Virus record (IMG/VR): IMGVR_UViG_3300037067_016575
Strand: one strand, 5' to 3'
Origin: an uncultured virus (IMG/VR IMGVR_UViG_3300037067_016575)
Lineage: Duplodnaviria; Heunggongvirae; Uroviricota; Caudoviricetes
DNA: 64,000 bases
The translations under genes and the position numbers were made by a program. Below the pieces are notes generated by a model that searched no databases, had not been told where the DNA came from, and worked only from the letters and a program-made list of their open reading frames with translations. Every line of letters begins with the position of its first letter. Position 1 is the first letter of the stretch. Positions 37,230 through 64,000 of the stretch are shown one piece after another.

Positions 37230-37562
37230 AAGTTCACCCGATATTTATTTACCCGGAATGAACCGGGAAAAAGGTTGGTTTAGTTATACCTTTTTTATAA
37301 GTTCGATCTCGCATTCCACGTCTTTGATTTGTTTTTCTAGTTCGGCGATCTCGTTCTCTTTTTTTTCTGCGGTGAATTGTTTCATAAACAACATCCCTGC
37401 TATGAACGCCTCTTGTTCCGTTGGAGTTCTCGGAGATGCATCCGGATACTGGTTGAAAAAAATAATTAACTTCTCTTTCAACTCCATTGCTACATCCATG
37501 AATATTGGGTTATCCCCATAACGTTCTTGTATGCGTTTATCAAGTGAGGTTTCTACCATGAT

Positions 37563-38030
37563 TTACCATCCACGTTTTTTCTCGAATTTTTCCCGAGTTG
37601 TTTGTTCAAGGGGGCAGAATTCCGGGAACTTGCACTTCCCCTTGTTTCCGTAAAACACATCCATTACGTAGATCTGCTTTCCTTTACCCTTGCATTCTGT
37701 GCATGTATACCTGATCGGGGTTTTTGTTGCGTCTATTTTTGCCGAAGGACAGTTTAAACAGAAATAGATTACACTTGGTTTTGGGTAGAGCCGCGTTTTG
37801 AGGCCGTTTTCTGTTTTACCCGTTGGTTTTAGAGGGCAGAATTCCGGAAATTTGGTCTTATCCTCTGGAAATATATCGAGATGGACTTCCTCTTTTACTG
37901 TCAGCTCGCCACATCGGAGTACAATTGGATCTTTTGTGCCTTTTATGAGTAAGAGTGAGGGGCAATTAAAGCACGTCGTGATTTCGCGTGCTTTCGTATA
38001 AATTCGTACTTCCTGAGTTTTCTTTATCAT
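37563..38030 (-). CDS. protein with two tandem Cys domains
   Basis: C.NCPS...C...KFPEFCPL occurs twice. Confidence 0.7.
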   Translation of the reverse strand: MIKKTQEVRIYTKAREITTCFNCPSLLLIKGTKDPIVLRCGELTVKEEVHLDIFPEDKTKFPEFCPLKPTGKTENGLKTRLYPKPSVIYFCLNCPSAKIDATKTPIRYTCTECKGKGKQIYVMDVFYGNKGKCKFPEFCPLEQTTREKFEKKRGW

Positions 38031-39134
38031 AATTTACCTCGTAATTTAATTACATTAATTTTAAGGTTAACACAAGTTAGATCTCATGAGGGCAATAACG
38101 TCAGGATGAAACCAATACAGGGTTTTTCCTTGAAATTCGTACCTGTCGATAGTCGTTAGTTTTGTATTGAGTCTGAACGTTCCGTTTGCCATGATCTCTT
38201 TGAAGATCTTTTCTGTCATTTCTACGTCGTAGTGTTCGATAACTGCCCGTAGGAACTTATACTGATGTGTGAAATCGTGATAGAACGGCGTCCAGTTTAC
38301 CGTACCGAGATCATGAATGCCAATCGTAAAACAATTTTTATCTATACGAGTGATCCTTGGATTCTCCGGTAATGATTCGATTTTCGCAATTAGCTCGGCG
38401 TTAAGAGTTTCGAGTTTCTCTTTATATTCATCAAACGCTTTCTTATGATTTGTTAATGCTTTGATCTCTGCCATAATCTACCTCCATTTTTTTATACATT
38501 TTTCCGGAACATGAACCGGGAAAAAGGGGTTTTTATTATATTTTTATTTACTCCACTTCAAATTCCCAGAACCCCGGCCATTTAGATTTTCCTTCAACCC
38601 TTAATGAACCGCCATTTTTATCTACGGATTTGGAAATTTCGTTTGCGGTTTTTTTGTTTTCGCACTGGATATGAACCATTTCCCCCACGCCGTTAAGGGC
38701 GGGACAGTGTAAGGCGCGTACAACCCGTGAACTGTGTATAGGATTTGAACTTAATCCAATGAATGCGTTGTTTCCCGACAATCCACACGCTGTACCAATC
38801 TTTCGCTCTGCCAGTTCTGCAATTGTTGCTTCAATGAAGATACCTCCCTCTTCGGGAAATTTGTTTACGTAGTCTTCATCCATGAATCCATTAATTTCTG
38901 ACCTTGACATTTCACGCATATTTTTCCTCTTTTTTTACATTTTTTCACGAATACCTAGTATCCGAATTTGTTATTTCCTGCACTCTGCTTTCACCGTATG
39001 ATATGATGCCATCTGGTGTTCTCTCCCGTTGAGCTCGTCCTTAATCCATCTGCCAGACCAATCGGTTCGCCTCTCTTTTAATATTTTTTTGATTGACGGG
39101 TCGGGAATTTGTACTATCGGCACTTGCGTGAGAC

Positions 39135-39377
39135 TCATACCGCGTTCCCCTTTCCTTCACGAGGGAGTACCCGCCACGTTACGCTGTTTGCTTCACTGTA
39201 CTGTTCAATGATCAGTTGTTTTGAGATCTTTGAGATCTTGTACAGATTTACACCGATGACTTTCGCGGATAAACCAAGATCTTGGCCGATGTATTTCGCT
39301 TTGAAAAAGCGTTTTCCAAGAGCGATCTGTTCCTTGAGGTGTTTGATGATCAATTGCTGGTTTTTTGTGTATGACAT
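39135..39377 (-). CDS. small archaeal winged-helix protein
   Basis: FFKAKYIGQDLGLSAKVIG..L..I....IEQYS....TWRV, resembling small euryarchaeal wHTH proteins. Confidence 0.65.
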   Translation of the reverse strand: MSYTKNQQLIIKHLKEQIALGKRFFKAKYIGQDLGLSAKVIGVNLYKISKISKQLIIEQYSEANSVTWRVLPREGKGNAV

Positions 39378-39580
39378 TGTGGTTTCATCCCTGTGCTGTG
39401 TGATTTTTTCTTATATTCTGCATATGCATGTACCGATTCAGGACATCCTCTTCAGGGTCTCCCAAAGTTACATGCAGTGCAAGATAGTTCTGATATTCCT
39501 GACAATACGCTTCCCCGTCACAATCACTAGATTGACATACGAGACATGGATTCATTTCTTCCAACGGTTCTTCCATGAGT

Positions 39581-41568: not shown

Positions 41569-41581
41569 AAAATCACCCCAT

Positions 41582-41619
41582 TAATTACTTAATTACTTCT
41601 GTAATTAATTAAGTAATTA
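41582..41619. repeat. AT-rich palindromic intergenic element
   Basis: taattacttaatta-N10-taattaagtaatta. Confidence 0.7.
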
Positions 41620-41940
41620 GATTAAATCAATATCGGCAAACCGATTGAACGGTTCTTTAGGAATCAGATTATGCCCGTGAAGGATTTCTCCCCCATCAAT
41701 AAAATTCGTTCTGGATATTTTAACAACAACGTGTCCTTTATTAAATGGGACGTGTATCCAAAATGTTCCGGACACCGCTTCACAACCGCACTGTGTTTGA
41801 CGACATGCCACGAACAGATCCTCAAGATCGCCTTTTTTGTCCCATTTGATATCTTTTTGATTTGCGCAATTTTTATGATATCGCTGGATTGCATCCATTA
41901 CTGGTTGCGGAACACGGAATTTTTGCATATGTATCACCAA
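41617..41940 (-). CDS. hypothetical protein with terminal RF tag (NRFADIDLI*)
   Basis: ORF track; tag. Confidence 0.7.
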   Translation of the reverse strand: MVIHMQKFRVPQPVMDAIQRYHKNCANQKDIKWDKKGDLEDLFVACRQTQCGCEAVSGTFWIHVPFNKGHVVVKISRTNFIDGGEILHGHNLIPKEPFNRFADIDLI

Positions 41941-43561: not shown

Positions 43562-44568
43562 TTCAATCCCCTCTGGGTAATTCGTATTTACATATGTAAC
43601 TGTGAGATTATCTTTCTGATGTCTTCGTCCGGAACATGAACCGGAAAAAAGATAGTCACTTCCCGACGCTATGAGCTTTTTCGGCTCTCTTTTTTATGTC
43701 ATCATCAAAACACTCAAGGTTGTTCCTTGTCGCTGATACGCAGAATGGTTCGCTGCTACCTCCACTTACTGATAACATTATACCATCCACCTGTCGTATT
43801 GCAAAAAGCCAGTCCATTGCTATCTCTGTTCTATTTGGAGCATTTTCAGGAACGAGGTTGACAAATAGGCGATTGAGTAATAGACAAATATACATTTTTT
43901 CTTTTGTAGTGTGTTCCATTGTTACCTCGGGATCTTAACTTGGTTTTCCAAGTATGATTCAACCCGTTCCTTGAAAACCGGTGCGTCGTCTTTGTGAATT
44001 AGGAGCGAATGATAATCTACGGGATTGCCTTTAATCCTTAACCCTTCTCCAAGTTTTGGTGACCCATTTATTCCTTTGAGATAATGAGATCCATACTGGC
44101 ACTGAATGCCAATTTCGTTTCGACAGAGATCTCCGAAGTTCACGTAATATTTTACAGAACACGTGATTTCTTTTGATGTTCCCTCGTGGTATTCACACCG
44201 GTTACATTCTGCCACGGTTGGGTCACGCCACGGGAGTGTTGGACATTTTGATGGAAAGTTTACCATTTTTTCACCTGTGCCACGTTAGGCGTCTTCATCA
44301 AACCCTACGGCGTCGAGAAGATCCATAAGTGACCCGATATCGTTTTTGATGAAAACAAGTCCACCGTCCTTTCCTTTCATGATTCCGCCAAATTCACTGC
44401 GGTGGATCGGTTTGCCCTGTTGATCAAGGATTTTTACAGAGGGATCGTTTTTCTCTACAATGTACCCGTCTTTGTCGAGGACTTTATCAAAGCATAAAAG
44501 CATGTCTTCTTTTGAGTTCTCGTCAAAAGTAATTACACCCTTTTTGAAAACTTTTTTTGTCATGTTTA

Positions 44569-44772
44569 TCACCAGTAATCGAGATCTTCAAATCGCGGCT
44601 TTATGATCGTTTTTTCTTCTGTGGTGCTAGTTCCGGATACCCCCGTGAGGTGAGTAGACGCTGTTTTTTTCCTCTTTTCTATTTCTTCCAACCTTTTCTC
44701 TATATCAAGAAGTGTGTCATTGTCTATGTCACTAAATCTCGCTACAAAATTCTGATGTGTGTTTAGAGACAT
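44569..44772 (-). CDS. 67-aa protein with two RF tags
   Basis: ARFSDIDN near the N-terminus and PRFEDLDYW* at the C-terminus. Confidence 0.6.
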   Translation of the reverse strand: MSLNTHQNFVARFSDIDNDTLLDIEKRLEEIEKRKKTASTHLTGVSGTSTTEEKTIIKPRFEDLDYW

Positions 44773-44935
44773 AGTATTATCACCCCATCAAGATAAAGGC
44801 CGATGAGAGTGTTGTGCTCATTACACAAATTATTCCGAGAATGGGTACACTCATGAAAATAACACACGTAACTAATACCATCGCCGTAATAGTACCAATT
44901 TTTACGAGGTATATTTTTGTTTTGTAATTCATATA

Positions 44936-45532
44936 TTACCCTCCGAGATGTGCCTTTAGTTTCCTGATATATTCGATATCAGGAAACCCGGTGATGTAAA
45001 TTTCACCGTTGTGAATATTGATTTCAATTGGCGGGATTTCACCTGCATCTGGTGCCGGGATCTTCCCTGTCAATGAAATGACTTTCTGGTTCGATGACGC
45101 GATTAATGCTTTTCCATCAGTCGCGTTTTCCTGATCATACCGACCCGAGACCAACATATCTGCCGCTGCCAGTAACCGGTTCACACCTATGTCCTCTTTG
45201 TCTTTCAGTTCTGTATATGTAAACCCGGTGAATATCAGCACGGTCTTTCCATTCTGCTGTAGGATCTCAGCAAGATCGGCTAGTGCATCGGCCTGCAAGA
45301 ACGGTTCTCCCCCGGAAAACGTAACACCTTCGATGCTTTCAATCATCAGGATCTTGTTCGCCAGCTCGGTTACAGGAACCATGATATTGGGTTCAAAAGA
45401 CCAGTTTTGTGGGTTGAAACACCCCGAGCATTTCAGGTTGCATCCCTGCACCCAAACGACCGCTCTTTCCCCGTGACCGTTCGCTTTTGAACGATCCATG
45501 AAATACGCCATGTTTAGTTTTCGTTCGGACAT
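44936..45532 (-). CDS. radical SAM protein, NrdG/activase-like
   Basis: VWVQGCNLKCSGCFNP (CxxxCxxC), GVTFSGGEPF, FTGF, SSNQ. Confidence 0.85.
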   Translation of the reverse strand: MSERKLNMAYFMDRSKANGHGERAVVWVQGCNLKCSGCFNPQNWSFEPNIMVPVTELANKILMIESIEGVTFSGGEPFLQADALADLAEILQQNGKTVLIFTGFTYTELKDKEDIGVNRLLAAADMLVSGRYDQENATDGKALIASSNQKVISLTGKIPAPDAGEIPPIEINIHNGEIYITGFPDIEYIRKLKAHLGG

Positions 45533-45799
45533 GATTACACCATTAGTTTTGTTTGTCGTTCGCTGGGTGGATTAATCCACTGTTTATTTTGTTATATTTT
45601 GGTCTGTATAATTCGTGAGGGGCTTTAATTATTACTCCTGAATAACCAGTACCGTTTTCAAGTTTTTTTAACATTTCTTTGCTGTATTCATGATCTCCAC
45701 ATGGGAAAAATACACCCCACGAACCTTTAATTTTTTCTGCCATAAGTTCACCTTATTTTGGGAGTTGTGCAATGAATGTTCCGGAATAATCTTCGCTGA

Positions 45800-46435
45800 T
45801 CATACTTGTTCCACCAAATCGATCTCAGCAAACCGATTTTTCTTTTCCGTGTTTTTATTAGTGGGGGTGTTTAAACTAATGGCAATTTCGTTGATCTTTT
45901 TAATGATCTCTTCCCGGTTATTCAGAATTTCGCCATCACATAGATCACTTTCGCAAATCACCATCAGTTTCCCAATCTCTTTGACCTTTTCGATAAACGA
46001 AACGTTTTCCTGTATATCTTCCACTCTGTCGAGTTTTTGAATCCTGAATGGTTGTTTTTTATTAGTATATATTTTGTAGAAACTACGGTGGGCGTGGTAA
46101 TCGGAAGTTTTATTGGTGATTTCCCATTCTGATGGAACGTAAGGAACGTATAACACATCCCCTTTTGTTTCGTATCGTGATTTTATCGGGACATTGATAC
46201 AGAATGGTTGGTTTTCTGCATACATCTTTTCAAACGCCGTAACTCGTTTTTGAATTGGGTGTTTGTCCAATTTGAACCCATAAAGATCTTTCCCACCCAG
46301 TCCATTCAGCCAGCCATTACCGGATTCAACCACAACGCCTTTTTTATCGAAAAAAATGATGTTTTTAAGTTCACGGTCTTCGATAAAATACGGCCTGTAA
46401 AAATCACTGTATGCGAAGATTGTAATTCCTGCCAT
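45800..46435 (-). CDS. hypothetical protein with RF tag (NRFAEIDLVEQV*)
   Basis: Start at MAGIT after GAGGAGG; the upstream extension in the ORF track overlaps tRNA-Lys. Confidence 0.75.
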   Translation of the reverse strand: MAGITIFAYSDFYRPYFIEDRELKNIIFFDKKGVVVESGNGWLNGLGGKDLYGFKLDKHPIQKRVTAFEKMYAENQPFCINVPIKSRYETKGDVLYVPYVPSEWEITNKTSDYHAHRSFYKIYTNKKQPFRIQKLDRVEDIQENVSFIEKVKEIGKLMVICESDLCDGEILNNREEIIKKINEIAISLNTPTNKNTEKKNRFAEIDLVEQV

Positions 46436-46459
46436 AAGATTCCTCCTCGTTTTTGTGTA

Positions 46460-46567
46460 TGCGCCGGAGGGGATTTGAACCCCCGACCAACGGATTTCTT
46501 CCGGGCTAATATGACCCATTGCTGCCCGTTAAAAGTCCGCCGCTCTACCTGACTGAGCCACCGGCGC
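46460..46567 (-). tRNA. tRNA-Lys(UUU) with canonical 37/38 intron
   Basis: GCGCCGG/CCGGCGC-A; GCGGA-CT TTT A-[intron CGGGC..GCCCG]-TCCGT; GGGG-TTCAAAT-CCCC. Confidence 0.9.
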
Positions 46568-46587
46568 ACAAAATATATTTCTCCGTG

Positions 46588-46798
46588 TGAGGTTAACAAT
46601 ATGCCGTGATAGACACCTGTATTGCAGGCTTATACGGATACCTGCAAGTGACTCTATGGTGAACGGGGTAGCCCATAGAACGCTCTACCCGAACATAAGC
46701 AATCCACACAATCCGGAAAATACGGCGATTTCGTATCTTGGTTGCCGCCACCTCATCAGTCTGACGCCCTGCGCGACATCACCACATTATTTAACCTC
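46588..46798 (-). ncRNA. candidate ~210-nt closed, pseudoknotted ncRNA
   Basis: Terminal helix GAGGTTAA/TTAACCTC; internal hairpins TCTATGG/CCATAGA and TTGCAGG/CCTGCAA. Confidence 0.5.
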
Positions 46799-46822
46799 TG
46801 TGCGGATGTTGGGGAAGAGGTA

Positions 46823-46895
46823 TACTCCCGGACAGATTCGAACTGTCGCCGCCAGATCCAAAATCTGGCATCATTGACCGCTAGACTACGGGAGT
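46823..46895 (-). tRNA. tRNA-Gln(UUG), archaeal A1-U72 type
   Basis: ACTCCCG/CGGGAGT-A; CCAGA-TT TTG GA-TCTGG; GACAG-TTCGAAT-CTGTC. Confidence 0.9.
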
Positions 46896-46898
46896 ATA

Positions 46899-46973
46899 TG
46901 CTCCATAACAGATTTGAACTGTTGTCTCATGTTGTCACCATGAGAGATAACAATGTATGTTATCCGATGGAGC
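46899..46973 (-). tRNA. atypical tRNA-like gene, loop GTGACAA (GAC, Val-like)
   Basis: GCTCCAT/ATGGAGC-A and perfect T-arm, but 7-bp D-stem and 6-7-bp anticodon stem. Confidence 0.5.
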
Positions 46974-46975
46974 GA

Positions 46976-47125
46976 TGTGGTGCGTTGGATTTGAACCAAC
47001 CATTTGCCGCATTATCTAGAATACTCGGCAAACTATCTTCTACTTCCCTTATATCAGTAACGGTTCCGGCACAGGTGCGACCCGTGGCGCTTGTCGTTTC
47101 ATATAAAGGTGTCAAGTAACACCAC
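46976..47125 (-). ncRNA. 150-nt tRNA-like RNA with enlarged arms
   Basis: GTGGTGT/GCACCAC-A; GTTGG-TTCAAAT-CCAAC; long internal hairpins. Confidence 0.55.
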
Positions 47126-47150
47126 GCAAGTTCACCAGATTTTTAGTTTG

Positions 47151-48056: not shown

Positions 48057-48069
48057 GGTTATTCTAACT

Positions 48070-49770: not shown

Positions 49771-49872
49771 GATTCCACCTCGTGAAATTTGTATAACGTC
49801 GATATACGACGAATTCAACTGCTCCTCTTGGAAATACCTTGTTTCCCGGAACGAACCGGAAAAAAGTTAAAT

Positions 49873-50604: not shown

Positions 50605-52017
50605 TAATCTCACCTCTAAAATCAGTATAACGTCGATATACGACGAATTCAACTGCTCCTCTTGGAAATACCTTGTTTCCCGGAACGTGAACCGGAAAAA
50701 AGGTTAGAGATTTTTCATCTCTTCATACATGATATAACCGTGCCAGCGGATTTGTGTGTCAAACCCTTTCTCTTTGAAGTTAAGAGGAATGTAGAATAGT
50801 TTTGCGTCCGTCCCAAGAAACTCAAAAAGTTCGGCCTGTATTTTGTCGGCAGTGCTTTCCCATTCTGTTTCCGTAATCCCTGATTTCGGCATAAGAAAAA
50901 TTGTTAGGTTGGTTCCCCGAGATAATGCTTTTTGAGTGATACTTCCCTCCGATCTAAAGGGCCACGGTTTATTTACGTTTATGTTATACGCCTTGACTAT
51001 ATCTCGCATTACTTTGATAAATTTTTTAGTCCTCTCAGCCGGGGCAATATATTCATACGGTTTGCGTAAACCGGCGATGTTTTTACGGCGTACTTCAATG
51101 TGTGACATTTCCTCTATTCCCCCTCCGATATGAGTGAGATCTATTGGACGTTTAATGATGAAATCTTCCACATTGCATTTCATTATTTTACCCCCTGTAT
51201 TTTTTGTTTTCCTTCGGTGTTCTCCGGTGGCTTTTTGCTTTCCCTTCTTCAATATTTAGGATCTCGTCGATTGTGTCCCTTAATGCAAGAAGTTCCTCTC
51301 TTGAGTTTAAAGTGATCTCTGATACTGGAATACAATCAAAATCTAACCTATGAACTGCTTTATTATGTGGTTCAAAAAACATAAGGATATATTTTTCGTC
51401 TTTTGTACGAATTTGCATGTTTTCACCTCGTAAATTTTAGTTTCCCCTACTACACTAATTCCTTTATTTTCCGGAATGTGAACCGGAAAAAAAGATTAAA
51501 GGTGTCCGTCGCTCATGAAGTTCATGCACAGGCATTTTGTGATGTGTGTAAGATACATCAGTTCATACTTTGCGCGTTTCCCACTGACGGCCTTTTTCAT
51601 TTCATCGGAGATTTCCCGAAACTTTGTTTCATTCTCGGTCAACATCTCGGGATATCCGAATGTTATTGTGTACTGCTTTAGAGCGTCAAGAACCGCCTTT
51701 GCGTCGCTATTGGCGTCAATTTCGTCCATTAGAGCGAATGTCTCAATACATGTGCTTGCGACCACAGGAACGTCTTTTCTGACTTTGAGATAATCTTCCG
51801 TAAACAGTGCAAGGATCTTCTCTGCAAACTGTTTCCCGGTAATCTCATGTATTTCCTTTGCGCGTTCGATTGATATACGATAGTTATACGCCTGTAAGAC
51901 GTGTATCCCCTCGTTTATCATTTCGGGTTTCCATTCAAATAACGGTTTGGGTAATTTTGCCATAATTGTTCTCCTTTTGAATGCCTTAATTTTCCGGAAC
52001 GTGAACCGAAAAAAAGG

Positions 52018-52734
52018 TTAAATGTTTAGTGTCGGGCCTGTTCCCGGTGGCGCAAGATCTGGCTCGTTCCTCAGTAACCTGTCGAGTGTTGTTACTGACC
52101 CATCACCACGGACTGCGTAAATTTCTCTATCTTCTTCGCATTCTTTCGCTTTTTTCTTTGCTTCTTTTTCCCGAATTTGTTTTTCTGTGAGATACAAGTT
52201 ATTTACTTTTTGAGAAATTAACCCCCCCAACTTATTGTTGTCAAATTTATCATAGAGTATAGTGGTTACCTGATTGCCTTTTTGGAATACAGTTAGGATA
52301 TAAAAATTCTTTGATTCTGTTAACCCATATTCCTTATATCCCTCAAAGTTTACATCAAGGTATTCTTCTAAGGTAAACATTTTAACTTCTGTTGAGGGGG
52401 ATGTGAGGGTTAAGCTAACATTACCTTCAATCATTTTATTATTTATCATCCGAGCACTATAGATATATGTAAATCCTCTCCGATATTCTTTTATTGCACG
52501 ATCTGGATCGATTTTCCATAATACTTGGAATCCGCCATTTGGATATCGAAATCCTCTGTTATCGGAGATCAGATCAACCCGTAATTTTTGCATGTCTTTC
52601 TTTGAAAAAGCATAGTAGTGTTTTCCCGGAATTTCATCATATAGTTTTGGGGTTACACCTACTTGCCTAAAATATGCAAGAGCTTTTTCTTCTTCTTTTG
52701 TTTGATAACTTAAATCAAATTTTACACCGAGCAT
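52018..52734 (-). CDS. hypothetical protein with shared C-terminal module
   Basis: Ends EIYAVRGDGSVTTLDRLLRNEPDLAP. Confidence 0.7.
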   Translation of the reverse strand: MLGVKFDLSYQTKEEEKALAYFRQVGVTPKLYDEIPGKHYYAFSKKDMQKLRVDLISDNRGFRYPNGGFQVLWKIDPDRAIKEYRRGFTYIYSARMINNKMIEGNVSLTLTSPSTEVKMFTLEEYLDVNFEGYKEYGLTESKNFYILTVFQKGNQVTTILYDKFDNNKLGGLISQKVNNLYLTEKQIREKEAKKKAKECEEDREIYAVRGDGSVTTLDRLLRNEPDLAPPGTGPTLNI

Positions 52735-53712
52735 AATTTCACCTCTTAAAATACATATGCACATTTCTTTACAATAGGATATCTTGTTTCCCGGAACGTG
52801 AACCGGAAAAAAGGTTATAATAAATCAGAGGGATCAAATTCAAACCGCCCTTTATTCTTTAGTCCTTCTGATTTGTGTTCTTTCTTTGGTGCCGGATTCG
52901 GTTGTGTTGACTGCCCTGTGTTTGGGTTTGCCGGGGGTATTCCTGATGGAATGTGTACCCCAACTAACCCCTCCATTCCCATAACTGAAAAAACCGTTGG
53001 TTGTTCTACCGGCGCACTCTCCCACCTCTTTTGAAATTCTCTTTGGATCGCTGTTTCCATGCCTGCAAGAAAATCATCTGATTTCATATTTTGGGTGACG
53101 TGTTCTTCTGCCATTTTTTTATTGAACGTACGCGTGGCTATGTAATAACCTTGTTTCGTTTTGTTTACTGTTTCGTCGAGAGCTTTGACGACCCCATTAT
53201 GTCCAATGTCGTATCCTCTTTGCCATTCGGCTTTATCCTTATAATTCTCATTGATTGCCATTTTTCACCTCAAATTTTCGTATAACGTCGATATACGATA
53301 CTCCTGACATTCCGGAACGTGAACCGGAAAAAAGGTTAGTAATACTCGATCTCGCTTGTGGGTTGGGGTAATCTCGGCATTTTTTTGGGGATTACTCCCT
53401 TTTTGAATAATTTTTCGACTGCCGCCCATGCTACCCGTTCGTGTTCATGCCACGGATATTCGTCCGGAATTGTTTTTACATTTACAATAGTCTCTGCGAT
53501 CATCGTGGCGTCTTCGATAAACGCCTTATCGACGTTCATATACGTATTGCCGTCGATAGATGTGATTTTCCGTGTTTTCGGATTAATATTGAGTCCTGCC
53601 AGATTACTACCGTAAAGTCCGTTTGATAGTTCGGCGTAATAATCTTGGAGAATTGTTTTCCAAATCCTCACCTTGAATTTTGCCATAATTTCACCTCTGC
53701 ATATGTATTTAT

Positions 53713-54037: not shown

Positions 54038-54087
54038 TTGTCAGGATGCAATACCAGATGGTCGGATTAAATAGTTCGGGCATTATT

Positions 54088-54459
54088 TCAATCCCCCATT
54101 ATAAAATCTATTTCGGCAAACCTTTTTTGCGCCCCGATTTTACACGTTTCCTTCTTCGGGGGCGGAGTTGAATTAATCTCGGTTTCTGTTATTATCTCTA
54201 TATGTTCAAACCGGTTCGGGGGTTTTGGTATGATAATCCCCTTTATCCACCCGGGATGTTTTTCCGCATACTCCTGTTCTTTAACACTGCCAACAAACGC
54301 ACAGTTAAAACAGGAGTCACAAACACCTCCCCGCCCTAGAGGTGTGTATATGTAATCCTTGCAGGTTGTTTTTCGGATTACTGTAAGACCGTATCCCATG
54401 TCTTTGTTTAAGATCATGCAATACCAGTGGGGATTGAATAATGAATCGCCGTATCCCAT
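54088..54459 (-). CDS. WYC..CxxC family protein with two RF tags
   Basis: NRFEHIEII and KRFAEIDFI. Confidence 0.7.
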   Translation of the reverse strand: MGYGDSLFNPHWYCMILNKDMGYGLTVIRKTTCKDYIYTPLGRGGVCDSCFNCAFVGSVKEQEYAEKHPGWIKGIIIPKPPNRFEHIEIITETEINSTPPPKKETCKIGAQKRFAEIDFIMGD

Positions 54460-54661
54460 AATCTAAAACCTCTATATTGCGTTTCTAATCGTGCCAGAAG
54501 GAATGACCCTACAAACACGTGATCCTCACCCATTTACGCGCCTGTCTGCGTAATACGCCCTTCTGAAAAGGGGAGAGGGGTTTAGGGTGAGGGGTTCTTT
54601 TCTCTTAAATGGAAGAGAAAAGAGGTATTCGGGGAGAAGAGGGGGAAACGTTCTCTTTTCA

Positions 54662-55462
54662 TCAGAACATATCCGCAACATCGATCCGGTCTGCGATCTT
54701 GGAACTGGTTTTGACAGGTTTACCCTTTTCGGGTCTGCCGTCCGGATGGAGTTCTGGAACCTCTGACTCATCAGCAGCTTTTGCGCCGCCATCTAAGTAA
54801 TCGATTTCGTTCTCCATTACAACGTCAACCGTCGAGAACCGGTCTTTTTCTTCGTCCAGAATTTCCATGATCTCTTTTTGGAGCGGAAGGATCTGGTCTG
54901 CCATGATCATATTCCGCATCTCTTCGATCCGGTGGTCGATCTGAACGTCTTCCGTTACATTGACCGTTTTAAGCCGATCCAGCATCTTAAGAAGTGCTCC
55001 CCGTGTGCGGGAAGTCATCTTATCCCCGTTTTTCTCAATGGTCTCGGAGATCTTCTTGAGTACCTTCTCGTGGATCTGGGTCTGGATCTGGGAGAGCATC
55101 TCTTCCATGAGGTTTTCAGTCTGCAAACCCGACATGGAGAGTGGGATGAAATGGATATCTGCCTTTAACGTCGGGTCAATCGCTTGCATCGAGAGATGTG
55201 CGTCTTGTACGACCTTTTCAAGCTGACCTTTCCCGATATCGTTAGTGATCCTCATCGTGTAAAACTTGGCGCATGTTCCCACGGCCATGTTTACCTGTTG
55301 CCTTACCACCCCGATCTGATTGCGCTGCTCTTTCTGGAAATGATAATACAATTTTTTGGAGTTCTCAGACTCGTTGATCTCGGTCTTATCCGTGAAATTC
55401 GGACTTGACATCTTGAGTTCAACGACGTAGAGTTGTCCTTTTGCTGTTGTTACTGCTGCCAT
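54662..55462 (-). CDS. helical protein of the AAA operon, RF tag (DRFSTVDVV)
   Basis: GGTGAGGT SD; co-oriented with the DUF2997-like gene. Confidence 0.75.
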   Translation of the reverse strand: MAAVTTAKGQLYVVELKMSSPNFTDKTEINESENSKKLYYHFQKEQRNQIGVVRQQVNMAVGTCAKFYTMRITNDIGKGQLEKVVQDAHLSMQAIDPTLKADIHFIPLSMSGLQTENLMEEMLSQIQTQIHEKVLKKISETIEKNGDKMTSRTRGALLKMLDRLKTVNVTEDVQIDHRIEEMRNMIMADQILPLQKEIMEILDEEKDRFSTVDVVMENEIDYLDGGAKAADESEVPELHPDGRPEKGKPVKTSSKIADRIDVADMF

Positions 55463-55523
55463 AAGTTTACCTCACCGATACAAGATTGTTTGGCAAAGAA
55501 AAGAGTTTTGAATTTCGCCGACC

Positions 55524-55742
55524 TTACCGGTGGACGAAAACTTCTGATCCCTTCTCTTCGAGGTAGGGCGTGTGGGCTTCCGCCATGAGATCCTGTTCCT
55601 TGACATTGGACTTGATCCCGTTGGATTCGAGATGCTTTCGGAGCTGCGCAAGGACTTCCGTGCATTTTGCACTCTTGAATCCTTCTGCGTGAACTTCGAG
55701 TTCCCCGCCATTCGAGATCCGGTATGTAATATTTTCTGACAT
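55524..55742 (-). CDS. DUF2997-like small protein
   Basis: ITYRISNGGELEVHAEGFKSAKC.E....L pattern; position after the DUF1257-like gene. Confidence 0.7.
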   Translation of the reverse strand: MSENITYRISNGGELEVHAEGFKSAKCTEVLAQLRKHLESNGIKSNVKEQDLMAEAHTPYLEEKGSEVFVHR

Positions 55743-55744
55743 AG

Positions 55745-56143
55745 TTAGAACCTCGTTGCGGTAATCAGGATCTTACCGTCCTTGTCCTTTGTTACCTGCT
55801 GCGTGAATCCCTGCTTCGTGTTGAAGTCCTTGATGACCGCCGCCTGATACTGATCCTGTACCATGTTGGTCACCTTGGCGAATTCCTTGTTGCACTGCCA
55901 CGGGTCGCCCTGCATCTCGTAGCTCTTCTTGTCCTCGGACTTGATAAACCTGAGATTACCCTGTTTCTGGTAACCATCAATCGGGGGATAGTTGACCTTG
56001 ATCATGGTCTTGTCGGGATTCATGGAGTAAGTGAACTTGACTTTCTCCGTTGAAAGCTCTTTCTGCATTGCTTTGAGTGCGTCTTCCAGCATCTTTGCGC
56101 TGGTTAACTCGCACTTTGTTTTGAGTGTCGTTATATGTGACAT
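55745..56143 (-). CDS. DUF1257 (Ycf35)-like protein
   Basis: MSHITTLKT...L..AL..M..GD.W......Q.Y.......GF; start trimmed. Confidence 0.7.
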   Translation of the reverse strand: MSHITTLKTKCELTSAKMLEDALKAMQKELSTEKVKFTYSMNPDKTMIKVNYPPIDGYQKQGNLRFIKSEDKKSYEMQGDPWQCNKEFAKVTNMVQDQYQAAVIKDFNTKQGFTQQVTKDKDGKILITATRF

Positions 56144-56229
56144 TCTTGTGATACCTCGTAAATATTGGGTGTTCGGACTTCGATACTGGATACCAACTTC
56201 CGGAACGAACCGGGAAAGTGGTTTGGATG

Positions 56230-56523
56230 TCACCCGCAATAATGCACAGAAACCTTACTAGGATTGATTCCGTTGGCTTTTAAATGTGCGATCAGTGCTT
56301 GGTCGTTCCCGGAACAAATAACCTCGCCATTCGAGATTATTACGTCCGTACGGGGTGACGGGTCAACCGGAACCACACTCAAATCCTCATGCCCTAGTGC
56401 CGTAAGGTTTGCTCCCGGCATAAAGGCAAGGGAAAAAAGAGGGTTGTGGTTAACCATATCCTCCCGGTGCCGCTCAGTCAATATCGCCGAGATCGGCTTT
56501 GCTGATTTCATCTTTAACGTCAT
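56230..56523 (-). CDS. hypothetical protein overlapping the AAA gene end
   Basis: ORF track. Confidence 0.55.
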   Translation of the reverse strand: MTLKMKSAKPISAILTERHREDMVNHNPLFSLAFMPGANLTALGHEDLSVVPVDPSPRTDVIISNGEVICSGNDQALIAHLKANGINPSKVSVHYCG

Positions 56524-58276
56524 TTTCCGTTACCACGTCGATTGTGCTGGCCCGGGTTCCGATCTTCTCTTTTGATGATACGATCTTCTTTCGGGCTTCT
56601 TCATCGTCCGACGCATTGATCGCGTTCTCTTCCGCCCAACGGATCATTGCATCCAGAATGTCCTTCTTCTGAGTGGTGATCGGTGTTACATCCTTCATCG
56701 CCTTGACAATGTGATCCGTCGTCAGGGGTTTTGCCCCTTCGTCGAATGCGTTACCAAGTGCGTCCTGAATGGTGTTACGGATTTCACGACCTACAAACCC
56801 TTCGCTGGCATCGGCCAGCTTTTCAAGGTCGAAATCTTCTGGGTTACGCTTGACGGCCTTGATGTGGATACGGAAGATCTCGATCCGTTCCTTCCGAGTC
56901 GGAGCGTTCACGAAAAACATCTTTGGGAACCGGCTCATCAGTTCTGCCTTGAGGCTCGCGTGATCGTTGCACGTTGCTACGACAAAAACGCCTTTCGACT
57001 CTTCCATCTCCGTCAGGAACGACCCGAACAACCGGGCGGATTCCTCGTGCATTTCACCGTTCTGGCCGGCACCAAGTGCCTTTTCGATCTCATCAATCCA
57101 GAGGATACAGGGAGCCAGTGCCTTGGCGAGTTTCCACGTGTTCCTCATGTTGTTAGACGACTCGCCGTAATATTTACTGACGAGCTGGGACATGTCCAAC
57201 CGTAGGAGCGGAAGCCGGAGTTCGTTGCCGCACGCCTTCGCGACCAGTGATTTACCAGAGCCGGGAACACCGACCATGATAATACCACGGGGCGGGTCAA
57301 TACCGTATTCCCGAGCCTCCTTTCCGAAGTGCTTTGAGGCAGATCGGATGTACGCTTTCAGGGTGTTAAGTCCCCCAATAGACTCCGACGTTTCCTCCGG
57401 TTCCCAGTACTCAAGCTGACCGGACTTCTTGATGATCTGCTTTTTCTCGCTGATGATCGTCTTGATGTTCAGATCGCCGTTGATCAGACACTTGGCGAAC
57501 ACGTTCTCGCATTCTTCGAGCGTGAGACCCAGCGCCGCCGCTACTATCGCGTCCTTGTTGGCGTTTACCTGATCATTGAGAGTCTTCTTCTTCGCCAGTA
57601 GTTTGGTCAGCATCGCTTTCTGCGATTTTGCATTCTCGGGATCACTTGTTTCTTTGATGTTATCCTTCATCGTCTGTTCCTGATCGGACAGCCCTTTGAT
57701 CGCAGCGCATAAGATCGCCTCGATCTCGGACTTGTCCGGCAGTGGCACGTCGATGATGCTGATCACTTTCTGCAAATCGACTGGAATAGATACGACCGGT
57801 GAGACAAGGATGATGATTTTCCTCTGTCCTTTCAGAACCGGGACGATATCACGGAGTTTACGCTGTACCAACGGAACATCCTTCATGAATCCGTGGGTAT
57901 CCAGCATAATGAAAATGTTTCCAGCGGTTCGTACTTGTTTGTCGTCTGCTCCCTTGTACTGTTCTGTGAGCTTCTTGGAACGGACTGCCTCCATTGCGTC
58001 GAACAACGTAAGTATCGTAGGGGTGTCGTCGTTTTCCGTTGAGTTTTGATCGGTATTTGTCTGAACCCATGTCGTGTTTGTTACATCGATCATCCGATGA
58101 TCGACATTCCTGAAACCTGATGCACCGGAATAGATATACACGGTGCGGTGTTCATCTTTGGCGATATCCGCAATGATTTCTATGACACGAGATTCCTCAT
58201 GGGTTTCAATGGCAATAACCGGGTATCGAGCCCGGATGTGGGTTGATAATTCCTTTTTTAGTTCTGCAATTCCCAT
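56474..58276 (-). CDS. Ycf46-type AAA+ ATPase
   Basis: IRARYPVI.IETHEE.R N-terminus, degenerate first AAA domain, Walker A GVPGSGKS, Walker B LWIDEIEK, sensor ATCN, WA..NA..AS; tail TRASTIDVV. Confidence 0.9.
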   Translation of the reverse strand: MGIAELKKELSTHIRARYPVIAIETHEESRVIEIIADIAKDEHRTVYIYSGASGFRNVDHRMIDVTNTTWVQTNTDQNSTENDDTPTILTLFDAMEAVRSKKLTEQYKGADDKQVRTAGNIFIMLDTHGFMKDVPLVQRKLRDIVPVLKGQRKIIILVSPVVSIPVDLQKVISIIDVPLPDKSEIEAILCAAIKGLSDQEQTMKDNIKETSDPENAKSQKAMLTKLLAKKKTLNDQVNANKDAIVAAALGLTLEECENVFAKCLINGDLNIKTIISEKKQIIKKSGQLEYWEPEETSESIGGLNTLKAYIRSASKHFGKEAREYGIDPPRGIIMVGVPGSGKSLVAKACGNELRLPLLRLDMSQLVSKYYGESSNNMRNTWKLAKALAPCILWIDEIEKALGAGQNGEMHEESARLFGSFLTEMEESKGVFVVATCNDHASLKAELMSRFPKMFFVNAPTRKERIEIFRIHIKAVKRNPEDFDLEKLADASEGFVGREIRNTIQDALGNAFDEGAKPLTTDHIVKAMKDVTPITTQKKDILDAMIRWAEENAINASDDEEARKKIVSSKEKIGTRASTIDVVTENDVKDEISKADLGDID

Positions 58277-59090
58277 ATTTGGTTAACCTCCCTCCATAGT
58301 ATAGGGATATTCGGACTTCTATACTGAATGCCACATTTCCCGGAACACGAACCGGAAAAAAGGGTTATGCAAACATCTCATTTTTTTAACTTATTGTAAT
58401 ACTTTGTCCAAAATGCAAGTGCTTCATTCGGATCGTTCCATCGGTGTTGTTTTATCCATGCGTATGACATGCCTGCTGGGTGAGGGGGTATATCCCAAAC
58501 ACCTTTTTTAGATAACTCCCAATAACCCTGATATACCCCGTCTATTAGGTGTGGCACCCCCTTCCGGATTGCCCATCTATTTTTTCCGGATATACTTGCG
58601 GTTATTAAAGTTATTTGTTGAGATTCCGGTAGGTTTTCAGATAAAAGAGGAATGATTTTCCACAGCGTCATGTGTTCACCCGTAAATAAGTTTTGAAAAC
58701 AGCGCGTATTGGAGGATTTTGTCTGCAATCCCGGCATCGATGTTTCCTGCATCAAGAGTGTTCTTTCCGTTTACATTGATTAAAGATACCTCGTTAGGCT
58801 GTGATTTCATCCAATCTTTTAATCCTTGTATGAGTCCTCGTTTGGAGAGAGTCAACCGAATGTTTTCATCGTCCGGATAGAATAAAATCGTTCCACCGTT
58901 GTTTATTGCTGACGAGGCCCATTCTGATAGTGACATTCCTGTTGGTTTTTTGTCATTAGGGTGTTTGATAATTATATGACCTATCCAATAGTTTGATCCA
59001 CCCTCCAACATTGTACAGATAATGTTGTCGAAAAACTCATCGTCGAGTTCGACTTCAACTTCCATGAAAACTGATTCTTTGACCATAATT

Positions 59091-59573
59091 TTACCTCTTA
59101 AATATCATTGTGCTTTTTCCATTAATCCCCAGCACTTCACGTTCTGTACCTTGAATAATTCGCATTAACCGATCAATCCAATCGGAATATCTGTGGCAAT
59201 TTATTGTAAACCGTTTATCCCCAAGAATACAACAAGGCACTACGGCAAAGGGAATATTATTTATTTTGGCGTATTGAATTATTTCTACCGTTGCCTCGTC
59301 TGGATGCATTCCGACGATTAATGAACTGCTTTTTATTTTTTCTTCTTTTGTGAACCATTTGCGAATGAGTGTCACTTTCTTTAAAAATAGTTGCGAAACG
59401 TTCTGTAATCTCGGTTTTGGCTCGAAGACGGTAACCGAATACCCATACTGATACAAACATTTCGAGAGTTCAAGGTTTCCGTCGGCGATTACTAGAACAG
59501 TCGGATATTTTTCGGGGGGGTATTTATAATAAATGTTTTTTGAAAAAATTTCAAATCTCCTTGGATCTCCCAT
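59091..59573 (-). CDS. class I SAM-methyltransferase-like protein
   Basis: VLVIADGN..LS, VFEP, IVGMHPDEAT..I...A....PFAVVPCC. Confidence 0.6.
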   Translation of the reverse strand: MGDPRRFEIFSKNIYYKYPPEKYPTVLVIADGNLELSKCLYQYGYSVTVFEPKPRLQNVSQLFLKKVTLIRKWFTKEEKIKSSSLIVGMHPDEATVEIIQYAKINNIPFAVVPCCILGDKRFTINCHRYSDWIDRLMRIIQGTEREVLGINGKSTMIFKR

Positions 59574-60221
59574 AACATCTCCCCCAATATGTATATACAG
59601 ATCCCTTATTTCCCGGAGCGAACCGGAAAAAAGGTAAAAATTATCGGAAAATTTTATGCAGGATTTCGGATGAATCAAAATCGTCTCCATATTGAAGGGA
59701 TTTGTCCAGTTCCAAAAACTCCCTAATCGTTTCCGGGGATGTTGACTTTTTTATATTACAATACTTGATTAAATCCTGTAAACAGTCGTCACAGATATAC
59801 CCGAATTCCTCATTATATCTACGACATAGGATATGTTCACAGCCTTCTTTAGAACACGGCATTACACCCATAATTTACCTCGTAATGATTTCCTGATTTC
59901 CAATTTCCATTAGTTTTTCACGGAGATGGTCTTCTGATACCTGTACTGTTTTTGCTGCTGTTACGACCATCGTATCAACAAGCTGCCACGTTTTAATCTG
60001 CTCATCCGTCAGAAAGCTTTTGATCTGTTCCGTCGCCATATTCAACGTTGCCTTGTAGATCTCGTGAGCTCTCTCCGCTTCCATATGACGGCGCATTTCT
60101 GCGATGGTATCGTCTGATGACATCGTTTTTCACCTCTTTTTTTTGTATATCGCCGTTATACAGCGTATTCAACTGCTCCTCTGAAATACCCGTTCTCCGG
60201 AACGTGAACCGGAAAAATGGG

Positions 60222-60872
60222 TTAAAATGGTTTCATCCATTTTATTTTGTTGTTTGAGTTTTCCGGGGTAAAACTTGCCTTGTTAATGGGACTTGTCCAC
60301 CCGTTCTTTTTCAGCCATCGTTTAACATCTGCGAGTTTCGGATCTCGATCCGATTTTCCATCGATCTCAAAGAGCGAGTTATTTAAATATACTTCGAAAA
60401 ATAGTGATCCTTGCCGATCATCAATAGGTAACCGGAAGTACTCTTTGAACTGATCTGTTGATATATCCTGTTTAACCGTGGGGTCTTTCTTGAAATCGTA
60501 ATGAGTGATCGTCCCGATAAAACCTTTCTCGATCATTGCGAATACATTTTTTAGTGTATCCGGATCTTCGTGAGTGATTAATAAACACCCGATTTCACAA
60601 TAATCGTTTCGTGAAAATATTGTGTGGTTGATGAAATCGATCAGGACTAATCCGTATTCGTCTGGATCAATCTCATTAATGAGTTTTGACTTCGGCCATT
60701 CGTTTTCGGGTTTGGCATCATTAATGAACTTGTTCAACTCTTTGCCTTGCTCCAAGAAAGAAGGCTGCATGAAACTCCACGGGAGTATATTTGTCCATGT
60801 GCTCATCAGTACTTCTTTGATTGTTCCTTTTTTGTCTTTGTACCTAATACCTACGAAAATTCCTCCGCCCAT
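60222..60872 (-). CDS. paralog family A member 3
   Basis: MGGGIFVGIRYKD..WTN..PW..MQPSFL.QGKE; flanked on both sides by the long repeat. Confidence 0.8.
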   Translation of the reverse strand: MGGGIFVGIRYKDKKGTIKEVLMSTWTNILPWSFMQPSFLEQGKELNKFINDAKPENEWPKSKLINEIDPDEYGLVLIDFINHTIFSRNDYCEIGCLLITHEDPDTLKNVFAMIEKGFIGTITHYDFKKDPTVKQDISTDQFKEYFRLPIDDRQGSLFFEVYLNNSLFEIDGKSDRDPKLADVKRWLKKNGWTSPINKASFTPENSNNKIKWMKPF

Positions 60873-61389
60873 AGTTTCACCTCTGAAACTTGTATACCGT
60901 CGATATACGACGAATTCAACTGCTCCTCTAAAATACCCGTTCTCCGGAACCTGAACCGGAAAAAAGGTTAATGTTGAATCATTTCGATAGCTGGTGTCCC
61001 GGGCATTCGAAAATGATGATCTGTCATTTCGTGGCCGCATTCGGGGCAACGGAATGTTAGTTCAACTTGAGGATTGTTTGGATCTGACCAGATTTCGATT
61101 TTTGTTAAATTCATCATTACACCGGCATGCCCGGTTCCATGACAGTTACAATGGATCGTCATCTAATCATCTCCGTTTGTGCTTGTTGATGCAACGGATT
61201 TTATCCCCTTGATCCTGTACATCATTTGTGTTTTTCCGATTGTGTTCCCTTCAATTTCGACGGCTTGGTTATTTTCTGCCTTTGACATCTCATTGGCGAG
61301 TTTCCGAAGCTCTTTTGTTACCTGTTTCTGAGTTAATTTCTCAGAAAACAGTAGCATGATATCTGTACCCATCTGTTATCACACCGGGG

Positions 61390-62112
61390 TTAATGTTTGT
61401 GCACGTACTGAGGGGTCTGGACAGTGATTACAACGCCTTTAGGGATCTGGTCGCGATTGATATCTTCGCAGTTACCCCCTTCGGAGTCGCATTGCCAATA
61501 CGAACCTGCATACGTATAATACGTGTAAACATGAATATCTGCGTCCGGGTCGTCCAGAATATACCGGTCACCGTATTCATATCCCGTGTTGTAATCGTAT
61601 TCTCCATTCTCTAACACGTAATACTGGTTTTCGTTATACCGGTACTGAGGATAGAGAACATTCGCCCGTGGACTGTAAGGATACGTATCACAGTTATCCA
61701 CGGTGTAAATCGTGCCGTACCCTTCCTGCGTCCCGGTAACCTGACAGGTATACATTTCGTTGGGGTATTGATCTCGCCATGAGAAATAGTCCGGGAACAC
61801 GAGCACAACGTTATCCGTGGTTTGTACGGTGAATTCACGGTCAATCTGGTATGCGGAGTTATATTGTGCCGCGTGGGTCTCATAGACCGTATACGTGATG
61901 GTCGAGGGATACGTTGGGGTTGCTACTGCCGCTGCCGCTACGGTTCCCGCTGTTACATCGGTGTTTACCGGGGCTTTTATGAAGGTCATCCCGCCGCCAG
62001 TTGCTATTAGGTAGCACGCTGTTCCTACGATTAATAACCCTGCAATTACGACGCCTACGGCTACGATAACTGCAAGTTTTCCGCTTAAAGGGGTTGGTTG
62101 GTTTTCTGTCAT
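61390..62112 (-). CDS. membrane-anchored Tyr-rich protein
   Basis: N-terminal TM; similar layout to 8868-9437. Confidence 0.7.
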   Translation of the reverse strand: MTENQPTPLSGKLAVIVAVGVVIAGLLIVGTACYLIATGGGMTFIKAPVNTDVTAGTVAAAAVATPTYPSTITYTVYETHAAQYNSAYQIDREFTVQTTDNVVLVFPDYFSWRDQYPNEMYTCQVTGTQEGYGTIYTVDNCDTYPYSPRANVLYPQYRYNENQYYVLENGEYDYNTGYEYGDRYILDDPDADIHVYTYYTYAGSYWQCDSEGGNCEDINRDQIPKGVVITVQTPQYVHKH

Positions 62113-63086
62113 AGTATTTCCTCCGTGTTTTTGTTTTTAAAAGATATCTGCCACGAACAGGGCAGGTAATGCCGGGTTACCCCATCCACCATACGGGATA
62201 ATTATCCAGTCGAGACCGGAATATTCCGTATCTGCTACATCGTATGCTGCGCTTGCATTACCATACGTCGAGACATAAAAATACTTGTGTCTGTTAATCA
62301 CAATGTATTCCCGACCGAGATATGTCTTTTTTCGTTTATCTTTTGGAGTGATTGTATCCTGTTGGATTTTAATGTGTTTTTCGATTGATACGCCTTTTGC
62401 CATGTTCTCACTCCCTGATCTCTTTTTGTTCCTTCTCGATCAATGCTGCGAGTTCTGCCCTTGCATCTGCAAGATCTTTACGTGCTCCGTCAAGACGAGC
62501 GGCTTCCGTCTGGATGAGATCTACCCTCATGTTCGGGACAAGCCACATCAGAGAGTTTACCGCCCATCCTGCCATTTCTAACGAGGTTATCGGCACGGTT
62601 GCAGATCTTATTTTTCCCTCGTCTGCCGCATTATACATCTGGTTTTTGACTTCCGCCGCCTTGTCAATAAGGGACTTTTCGATCTCGTCTGCCAGATTTC
62701 GTATCGATGTCTCTTTAGATTTCACATACTGATCGTATGAGAAAATTTTGCCTTCCAACCTCTCCCTCGGGGTTAATTGAACCGGGGGAACTACCGGGAC
62801 TTTTGGTTTTATTGTCATGATATCACCTCGTGGTTTCCGGAATCAGATGCCCCTCGTCATCATAAGGGCAGTTTTCCAAGTCTGGTTCACCCGGGCAAAT
62901 ATCTCCTTTTCGCTCGGGGCATTTTAGACATAGACATTTCTTGCATTGTTTTTCCGTGCCGGGACATTTATTACAACCCATTGCCATGATTTTACCTCTG
63001 AAACTTGTATACCGTCGATATACGACGTATTCAACTACTTACCTGAAATGCCTCGTTCTCCGGAACGTGAACCGGAAAAAGGGTTA

Positions 63087-63773
63087 CTATTTATTACAGA
63101 AAATTGGTTTATATTCGGGAGGTTCCCCGGCATATGCAACACAAATTGCATTTTTTACTTTTTCTGGGAGCATTGCGTACCGATCTCTCCCCTGATTTTT
63201 TACGGCGTCACAATACATTTTATATCCCTCATCCCATGGGGCGGAGAAATGAGTTTGATGATCCCCCCAATGTACAAATTTCGGGCGGAATATATCAGAT
63301 CGGGATATCCATTTTTGAAGGAACGTTCCTTGTTCTGCCAGATAGTTGATACGCCCCGTTATTTCACCACACGAATCGCGGCAATCGTGATCCCCTACCC
63401 ATATTTTATGTGAGCCGACGGTTTCTACCCCCCCACTACACCCGGGCATATACCACGGGTCTTGAGAGACATATTCCGAAATGAGATCTGCCTGTTCTGG
63501 TGAATACTTGCTGAAACAGTAAACAAGAAGGTCTCTGAAATAATCTTCTTGCTTCTTCGGTTCCCATTCAAAATAGTAATTTCCCCCATTGACACTCCCC
63601 CCATTATAATAGGTGTCAAAGGTTAGCACAATCCCGTAGTTTTCGTGAAAAAATACGTAAAATGTGTCTTTAATATGATCGGGTTCTATTTTTACTTGAA
63701 ACGGTATTTCAAGGACTTTTTTAAACCCGAAATTCTCAATTTTTTTGATATAGTTTTCTACATTTTTCTCCAT
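63087..63773 (-). CDS. hypothetical protein flanked by long repeats
   Basis: GAGGTGA SD; ORF track. Confidence 0.75.
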   Translation of the reverse strand: MEKNVENYIKKIENFGFKKVLEIPFQVKIEPDHIKDTFYVFFHENYGIVLTFDTYYNGGSVNGGNYYFEWEPKKQEDYFRDLLVYCFSKYSPEQADLISEYVSQDPWYMPGCSGGVETVGSHKIWVGDHDCRDSCGEITGRINYLAEQGTFLQKWISRSDIFRPKFVHWGDHQTHFSAPWDEGYKMYCDAVKNQGRDRYAMLPEKVKNAICVAYAGEPPEYKPIFCNK

Positions 63774-64000
63774 GAGTTCACCTCGTTTTTTCGTATACCT
63801 TCGATATACGACGTGTTCAACCTCTCCTCTGAAACACCTCGTTCTCCGGAGCGCGAACCGGAAAAAAGGTTGGTTTTATTTTCCTCAATTATGGGATTTA
63901 GTACGTCTCAAACATGAGGTAGGGGCAACTTTCAGGCCCGTCAACCTCTGCATATACCCGCACTTTACGACCATCGGGAAGTTTTGCGAAGAGAACGTTG

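Follow-up and report, generated by a model that had tools for sequence, protein, structure and literature searches.

Short repeated units in the gaps between genes have been described in several viruses. In T4-type phages they are the PeSLs, in which a stop codon, a stem-loop, a promoter, a Shine-Dalgarno (SD) sequence and a start codon follow one another, and for which activity as terminators and promoters and in the formation of mini-circles is reported (PMC2839356; PMC4122927). Among archaeal viruses, the account of HGTV-1 places a motif made of a TATA sequence and an inverted repeat before most genes of the left arm (PMC3950731), and the intergenic repeats of halovirus HF2 are described as proven promoters (PMC8707807). 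Here we analyze a hairpin element that recurs between the genes of a stretch of 64,000 nucleotides, hereafter the window, from the uncultured virus record IMGVR_UViG_3300037067_016575 of IMG/VR. From its sequence we are moderately inclined to regard the element as the constant leading part of a regulatory cassette that is used repeatedly between genes and corresponds, in archaea, to the PeSLs; it would most likely punctuate the transcription of many small genes.

Number, position and anatomy of the hairpin copies

The preliminary description of this DNA counted at least 16 copies at cassette boundaries, and the count holds: 16 copies lie between 37236 and 63873, all on the minus (coding) strand (Table 1). 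A loose pattern search of the window gave 16 minus-strand matches and one unrelated plus-strand match, against a mean of 0.6 and a maximum of 3 in 40 dinucleotide shuffles searched on both strands. A covariance model of the 16 copies, a search that had been suggested at the outset, found one further and degenerate site (21.1 bits; E ~0.005 on a rough calibration), so that the statement that no copies occur before 37 kb is not quite accurate. All 17 copies have the same orientation.

Each copy consists of a stop codon, a T-run, CCGG, a loop beginning with TTC, a second CCGG, purines and a spacer that leads to the next start. The first CCGG stands 8–28 nt from the stop, and the spacer from CCGG to the start measures 23–75 nt, so that the SD of the next gene is present, as had been described, but does not follow immediately. 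Fifteen of the 16 copies have a T-run of 5–7 T, as a rule a single tract. The loop was thought to be conserved, which is true of its TTC and its final T, the only invariant loop positions, and not of its length, which is 8 nt in 12 copies and 6 nt in four; the shorter loops could be derived from the longer ones through dinucleotide slippage. In total, 13 positions are invariant among the 16 copies. The TAA of the motif is itself the upstream stop in seven of the 15 copies that have a called upstream gene, namely the six originally listed and the one at 51496.

The copies occupy 12 of the 17 gaps of at least 28 nt at 49.8–63.1 kb, three of 16 such gaps at 37.2–48.7 kb and, the degenerate 24-kb copy excepted, none of the 27 below 37.2 kb. 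Within the dense zone, one gene separates neighboring copies in six of 12 intervals and two to six genes in the others. Six long forms continue into a tail of which one example is given in Table 1. The second palindrome of this tail, GTCG-TATAT-CGAC, is present as reported; its GTCG/CGAC arms, though, have lost one pair in two of the seven copies that possess it, and the same stretch doubles as a GTATA-N7-TATAC dyad that is intact in all seven.

Two further observations concern these spacers and arms. Several SD sites (36190, 43600, 52760, 53690 and 59590) have a short CATATG-type palindrome immediately ahead of them. For the copy at 56183–56225, a contig from one sequencing run (X4) carries a two-base insertion in the 3' arm, by which the pairing register usual for the element would be restored; this is a single contig with a depth of 2.9 and possibly represents another copy.

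Table 1. Coordinates of the hairpin copies and of the genes discussed in the text
Feature	Position	Strand	Remarks
Hairpin copy, long form	63829..63873	-	Spacer reaches start at 63773
Hairpin copy, long form	63043..63087	-	Spacer reaches start at 62987
Hairpin copy, long form	60927..60971	-	Stop at 60968 is its TAA
Hairpin copy, long form	60180..60224	-	Stop at 60222 is its TAA; second palindrome with pair-keeping changes
Hairpin copy	59596..59638	-	6-nt loop
Hairpin copy	58323..58367	-	Upstream of AAA ATPase gene
Hairpin copy	56183..56225	-	6-nt loop, short T-run; within AAA / DUF2997-like gene cluster
Hairpin copy	53295..53339	-	Second palindrome present, GTTGAAY box absent; stop at 53336 is its TAA
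Hairpin copy	52774..52818	-	Stop at 52815 is its TAA
Hairpin copy	51977..52021	-	T-G pair in core; stop at 52018 is its TAA
Hairpin copy	51454..51498	-	Stop at 51496 is its TAA
Hairpin copy, long form	50663..50707	-	Nearest to consensus; stop at 50704 is its TAA
Hairpin copy, long form	49829..49871	-	Loop of 6 nt; 91% identity between its spacer and that of the 50.7-kb copy
Hairpin copy	43612..43656	-	
Hairpin copy	38487..38531	-	
Hairpin copy	37236..37278	-	Loop of 6 nt; its spacer, at 23 nt, is the shortest
Degenerate 17th copy	24143..24186	-	Downstream of RNA ligase gene; core TAGG/CCTG, 9-nt loop
Long-form tail (example)	50618..50661	-	GAGGAG..GTTGAAY box, then overlapping GTCG/CGAC and GTATA-N7-TATAC dyads, then SD GAGGTG
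AAA ATPase gene	56474..58276	-	SpoVK/Ycf46-like by the source names of homologues; between two hairpin copies
GINS-like gene	22537..23280	-	Named homologues from Methanoregula; grounds for host inference
ORFan with a hairpin at each side	60222..60872	-	Paralogues at 31013-31654 and 31657-32283

Predicted transcript fold and possible termination and start signals

In the consensus fold, T4-CCGG pairs with CCGG-R4 to give a stem of 8 bp. The stem is often longer past a bulge, with outer pairs in 46 of 68 cells when one bulged base is allowed, 44 with two and 29 with none, and 13 of the 17 copies have a pyrimidine at the bulge position. The 4-bp core is paired in all 68 cells, including those of the 24-kb copy, which shows one double change from C-G to A-T and one T-G; in the inner arm, 68 cells include 48 T-A, 12 T-G and two C-A. 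The mRNA strand folds better than its complement in 15 of the 17 copies (mean -2.3 kcal/mol), compared with 50% of random windows, and the copy at 50663..50707 has a z-score of -3.2 on the coding strand and -1.3 on the opposite one. This asymmetry agrees with the earlier view that pairing kept through G-U reflects a structure acting in the single strand, and it favors the mRNA-hairpin option that had been offered for the element, as far as prediction goes. We therefore consider it likely that the hairpin forms on the transcript; since the stem and the start of the loop are invariant, the data also suggest that something reads the sequence as well as the fold.

The position of the U-run is informative with respect to termination. 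It precedes the hairpin and pairs within its stem, the reverse of the order in a bacterial intrinsic terminator, which the element therefore is not; terminator prediction called one of 13 copies in 44–64 kb. Archaeal terminators are reported to be U-tracts for which a hairpin is not required, and two U4 tracts are given as the minimum for efficient binding of aCPSF1 (PMC8716108). In 400 kb from two Methanoregula genomes, 27 of 80 convergent gene ends have a run of at least five T no more than 30 nt past the stop, compared with six of 80 on the opposite strand, and of 23 such runs that were tallied 15 have a C in front; the viral stop-CC-T6 appears to bear the same signature. The element thus resembles the described FttA/aCPSF1 terminators (PMC8716108, PMC11616081) in having a U-run shortly past the stop codon and differs from the typical ones, which need no hairpin, in that its single tract is one arm of a conserved hairpin. 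As one tract is present where two are the minimum, termination would be expected to be leaky. The reported products of FttA have an optimal U end and U-rich RNA at -9 to -14, the cut lying ~22 nt behind the polymerase (PMC11616081); a cut after the first UU of the loop would place the U-run at -7 to -12, with the 3' arm not fully emerged, which is an approximate fit.

Start signals are best seen in the long forms. Their six spacers are 69–91% identical from the hairpin to the start (maximum 0.60 in the shuffled control), and the six, together with one shortened copy, have a TATATC-like word 19–20 nt before the AGG of the SD; in the tail listed in Table 1 it is TATATC that ends at this distance. 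A similar word occurs in host tRNA promoters, behind AAACC. The remaining nine copies share no box at a usable distance, and sigma70 sites are not enriched (39 versus 40.3). The SD of the next gene certainly lies in the spacer, and a promoter is likely, on these sequence features, in at least the long forms. The option of a terminator plus promoter, as first put forward, is consistent with the host-like stop and T-run, but a host-type promoter is not common to all copies; probably this option and the mRNA hairpin describe parts of one cassette.

In the mechanism that we propose, the U-run right after the stop would act as a host-type, probably leaky, signal for termination or cleavage by FttA/aCPSF1. 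When the polymerase reads through, the hairpin would close over the U-run and stabilize or mark the RNA, and the rest of the spacer would provide the start signals of the following gene. Ordinary homologous recombination would spread and homogenize the copies, which therefore may also serve as joints for the gain or loss of genes. The features of the element that can be seen directly are that it is intergenic, polar and clustered at the upstream end of a block of genes on one strand. Like the PeSLs, it is a repeated intergenic unit that extends from a stop codon to the next start, ~100 nt in the case of PeSLs, with a stem-loop containing G-T pairs (here predicted to form on the transcript) followed by an SD; it is clustered among small genes without known relatives (ORFans), and its homologous copies would be able to recombine. 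The PeSLs, unlike it, hold a sigma70 promoter and have demonstrated terminator, promoter and mini-circle activity, whereas the viral repeat belongs to an archaeal host, has no evident common promoter and uses its U-run as the 5' arm of the stem. With the repeats of HF2 and HGTV-1, as these are described, it shares the placement of repeated motifs in the gaps ahead of small genes, within a single arm of the genome of an archaeal virus; theirs is a clear AT-rich TATA motif and the present one a GC hairpin behind a U-run, the comparison being one of layout. With the cassette, the layout of PeSLs and intergenic repeats, described for coliphages and haloviruses, would extend to a methanogen host. 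For large methanogen viruses, whose early-gene control has hardly been described, the element offers a well-defined repeat in cis whose natural variants could serve in methanogen reporter assays.

Several results weigh against this proposal. The covariation among the 16 copies is not clearly above that of shuffles (46 of 500 reach the score), the copies have a common ancestry, and preservation of the T-run as such would equally account for the excess of T-G pairs. In just six of the 17 copies does the 3' arm exceed the composition control at 5%, the fold of the 24-kb copy does not surpass that of shuffles (z -0.2), and the invariant CGG-TTC...T-CCGG is unexplained by folding alone. The single U-tract falls short of the two-tract minimum. 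The copies have no TATA-like box in common, the TATATC-like word being found in seven of 16 only, and motif discovery did not converge on a host promoter model when given 90 upstream regions of the host. Finally, the strain comparison by which cassette-precise gain or loss was to be recognized gave no clean gene-skipping joint between two hairpins in the contigs of four of the six runs that carry this DNA; it covered 44001–64000 in near-identical strains, with contigs that drop rare forms and with the thin cover of one run (X4) at 44–46 kb left unused.

Competing explanations and the question of recombination

Unlikely, yet the most serious competitor, is a purely post-transcriptional role, in which long polycistronic RNAs would be cut, protected or antiterminated at a hairpin whose stem and loop a viral or host protein would read, and no promoter would be involved. 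A sequence-invariant core that folds on the mRNA strand, the pyrimidine at the bulge, the lack of a common promoter box and a U-run paired in the fold, opposite to the bacterial arrangement, would all be natural for such a site, and the window has a second hairpin family that likewise lies between stops and SDs. The steep fall of copy density along the gene block, on the other hand, resembles an early-promoter region, the long spacers keep the distance from TATATC to the SD at 19–20 nt, and no Rfam family matches the element. The second family is AT-rich and also begins at a stop (TAATTACTTAAT...); its members are at 48069-48114, 41575-41622, 36910-36962 and 28484-28522, with a remnant at 7627-7640, three of them right after genes that encode the C-terminal tag described below and one before tRNA-Met, and two folded at z ~-4.

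A related and rather improbable possibility is a virus-made switch on host termination. The U-run and the UU of the loop, lying roughly at the FttA cut, would be opposed by a hairpin in which the U-run is concealed, with the balance tipped by a viral protein that recognizes the invariant stem-loop. If a viral protein does read the loop to override FttA, this would be a new kind of transcription control in archaea, and through the copies the virus would have an antitermination or RNA-processing regulon of its own within its archaeal host.

About as improbable, perhaps slightly more so, is a site in double-stranded DNA, at which a viral factor would use a promoter or operator whose two CCGG boxes are separated by about one turn of the helix, and where AACC and the T-run would stand in the register of a transcription factor B recognition element and TATA box ~26 nt before a GGYAT start-like word. 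The CCGG boxes are nearly constant (one change in 16 copies) and their centers are spaced by 10 or 12 bp; AAC(C) persists even where it is not a stop, and the shortest spacer just accommodates a start plus SD. Such a site, however, would not account for the strand-asymmetric G-U pairing or the pair-keeping change in the 24-kb copy, and in the copies with 6-nt loops the downstream word is fixed relative to the 3' CCGG rather than to the T-run; a pure T-run, moreover, makes a poor TATA box. Resemblances to an origin recognition box (ORB) and to NrpR and LexA sites were dropped on spacing.

Very improbable is a selfish miniature repeat of the REP (repetitive extragenic palindrome) or MITE (miniature inverted-repeat transposable element) kind, tolerated between genes: IS200/IS605-type elements with TnpB Pfam matches do exist in the window and the copies are extragenic palindromes near stops, but all 17 have one orientation, they differ in sequence from the hairpins at the ends of the IS elements, and single matches are found in only 3 of 228 host-family genomes and none by covariance model in 61 loci.

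Homologous recombination between the ~100-nt long forms is plausible from their sequences. Similarity is greatest between neighboring long copies (0.91 for the pair at 50.7 and 49.9 kb), and one gene family has members flanked by hairpins as well as members in an ordinary operon. Two diverged paralogues share an identical tract of 78 nt near their 3' ends (49900-49980 and 52040-52120), ~30-45 nt before their hairpins, which is taken as a sign of local recombination or recent gene conversion. Among the joints in the run contigs, those with sides of 20-24 letters were set aside as repeat or foreign matches. One in run X5 from 60929 to 52779, with five letters present in other copies, and those in X2 at a depth of 8.15 are most simply explained by extra copies outside the window or, less probably, by a chimeric junction.

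Site-specific recombination of cassettes is another matter, and the element is not an integron. The anatomy of an attC site rests on the pairing of R and L boxes. As in integron attC sites and clusters of attC sites lacking integron integrases (CALINs), the six long copies have AAC...GTTRRRY boxes ~60 nt apart, their GTTGAAY fitting GTTRRRY in 6/6 at 60–63 nt from an AAC box that often contains the stop codon, and attC clusters without an integrase in phages, as well as integrons in archaea, are reported (PMC9892861, bioRxiv 2022.02.06.479319). An attC-like site, the recombination option of the preliminary description, is nevertheless the least credible reading of all, since the GTTRRRY box is missing from 10 of the 16 copies, RYYYAAC is exact in one of six long forms, the fold of the bottom strand, the one preferred by attC sites with their crossover consensus (PMC9892861), joins the two boxes in one of six, L boxes are indeed not evident, conservation runs ~40 nt beyond the supposed crossover between G and TT and is highest at the hairpin tip, and the proposed check for a recombinase found no integrase family among the 109 window proteins scanned.

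Gene content, distribution and other features of the window

Nearly all genes of the window are on the minus strand, and they are small, preceded by GAGGTG-type SD sites and without family; those beside hairpin copies mostly lack a Pfam or PHROG name. Functions could be named for an AAA ATPase, a radical SAM protein, an RNA ligase, a GINS-like protein, TnpB, phosphoesterases and four tRNAs. The ORFan flanked by hairpins has two paralogues that form a tight operon without hairpins. This DNA is carried by metagenomes from landfill and groundwater, and the longest contig with these proteins is 83 kb. The data sets listed as carrying it include no RNA run, a result that does not bear on expression. 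Judged by its sequence, the window is probably part of a large archaeal mobile genome, likely a virus of Methanoregulaceae, the host being proposed because the named homologues of the GINS-like protein come from Methanoregula; as no virion gene was recognized in the window, its viral nature is something we infer.

The element itself has a narrow known distribution. Exact-pattern searches of IMG/VR gave no match or 20 single matches without clusters, phages in INPHARED gave no match to the motif, and a 536-kb virus record (G410) gave none to the covariance model. Searches for relatives by way of the AAA, GINS and paralogue families returned nothing or distant loci only; metagenome and GTDB scans gave AAA genes 30–45% identical among the matches listed, and homologous proteins at 60–66% identity exist. 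In the loci around distant AAA relatives no motif cluster was found; the covariance model was run on 61 of these and recognized none. In the 228 host-family genomes three have one match each, and the one inspected falls inside a reading frame. A DNA search of 301 genomes gave tRNA matches among the matches listed, and Rfam matched tRNA sites only, both at gathering thresholds and at E up to 5. In the literature searched, whose coverage is incomplete, we did not find this element described. Mimicry of a CRISPR repeat found no Rfam match, and a CRISPR-repeat motif used as query gave no array in five genomes; mimicry of a tRNA T-loop is ruled out by a loop of 6 or 8 nt, not 7, and a search for Borg-type tandem repeats yielded two trivial arrays only.

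Other features were noted in passing. Two IS605-type TnpB elements, at 19880-21230 and 1-700, are ~91% alike over a shared 300 nt, the second being cut by the window edge. A non-coding element of ~310 bp at 53730-54040 has abundant related copies in the runs, and its end hairpins we take to be IS200/IS605-like. Four tRNA genes lie at 46460-48056, one of them with an apparent intron (46460-46567) and called by Rfam only, and tRNA-like remnants are seen near 46900-47000. After the AAA cluster there is a 200-nt pyrimidine-rich non-coding stretch at 54500-54660. The 536-kb virus record mentioned above (locus L248), which is unrelated, has an intergenic motif of its own (CTTACTT...GCGTAG) right after stops, in gaps near 8570, 11290 and 15580.

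On the protein level, 29 minus-strand reading frames (and no plus-strand frame) between 942 and 54123 have RF-x-x-[ILV]-[DE]-[ILVYF] within 25 residues of the stop, typically as NRFAEIDL behind a Lys/Pro-rich linker and on otherwise unrelated proteins; only one carrier is found in the hairpin-dense zone at 49.8-64 kb. Nothing relevant to this motif was found in the literature searched. A profile of 20 tag tails matched 10 proteins, eight from the window and two others, one with three copies. The sequence of the motif suggests a docking tag common to these proteins, which may be the stranger feature of the window.

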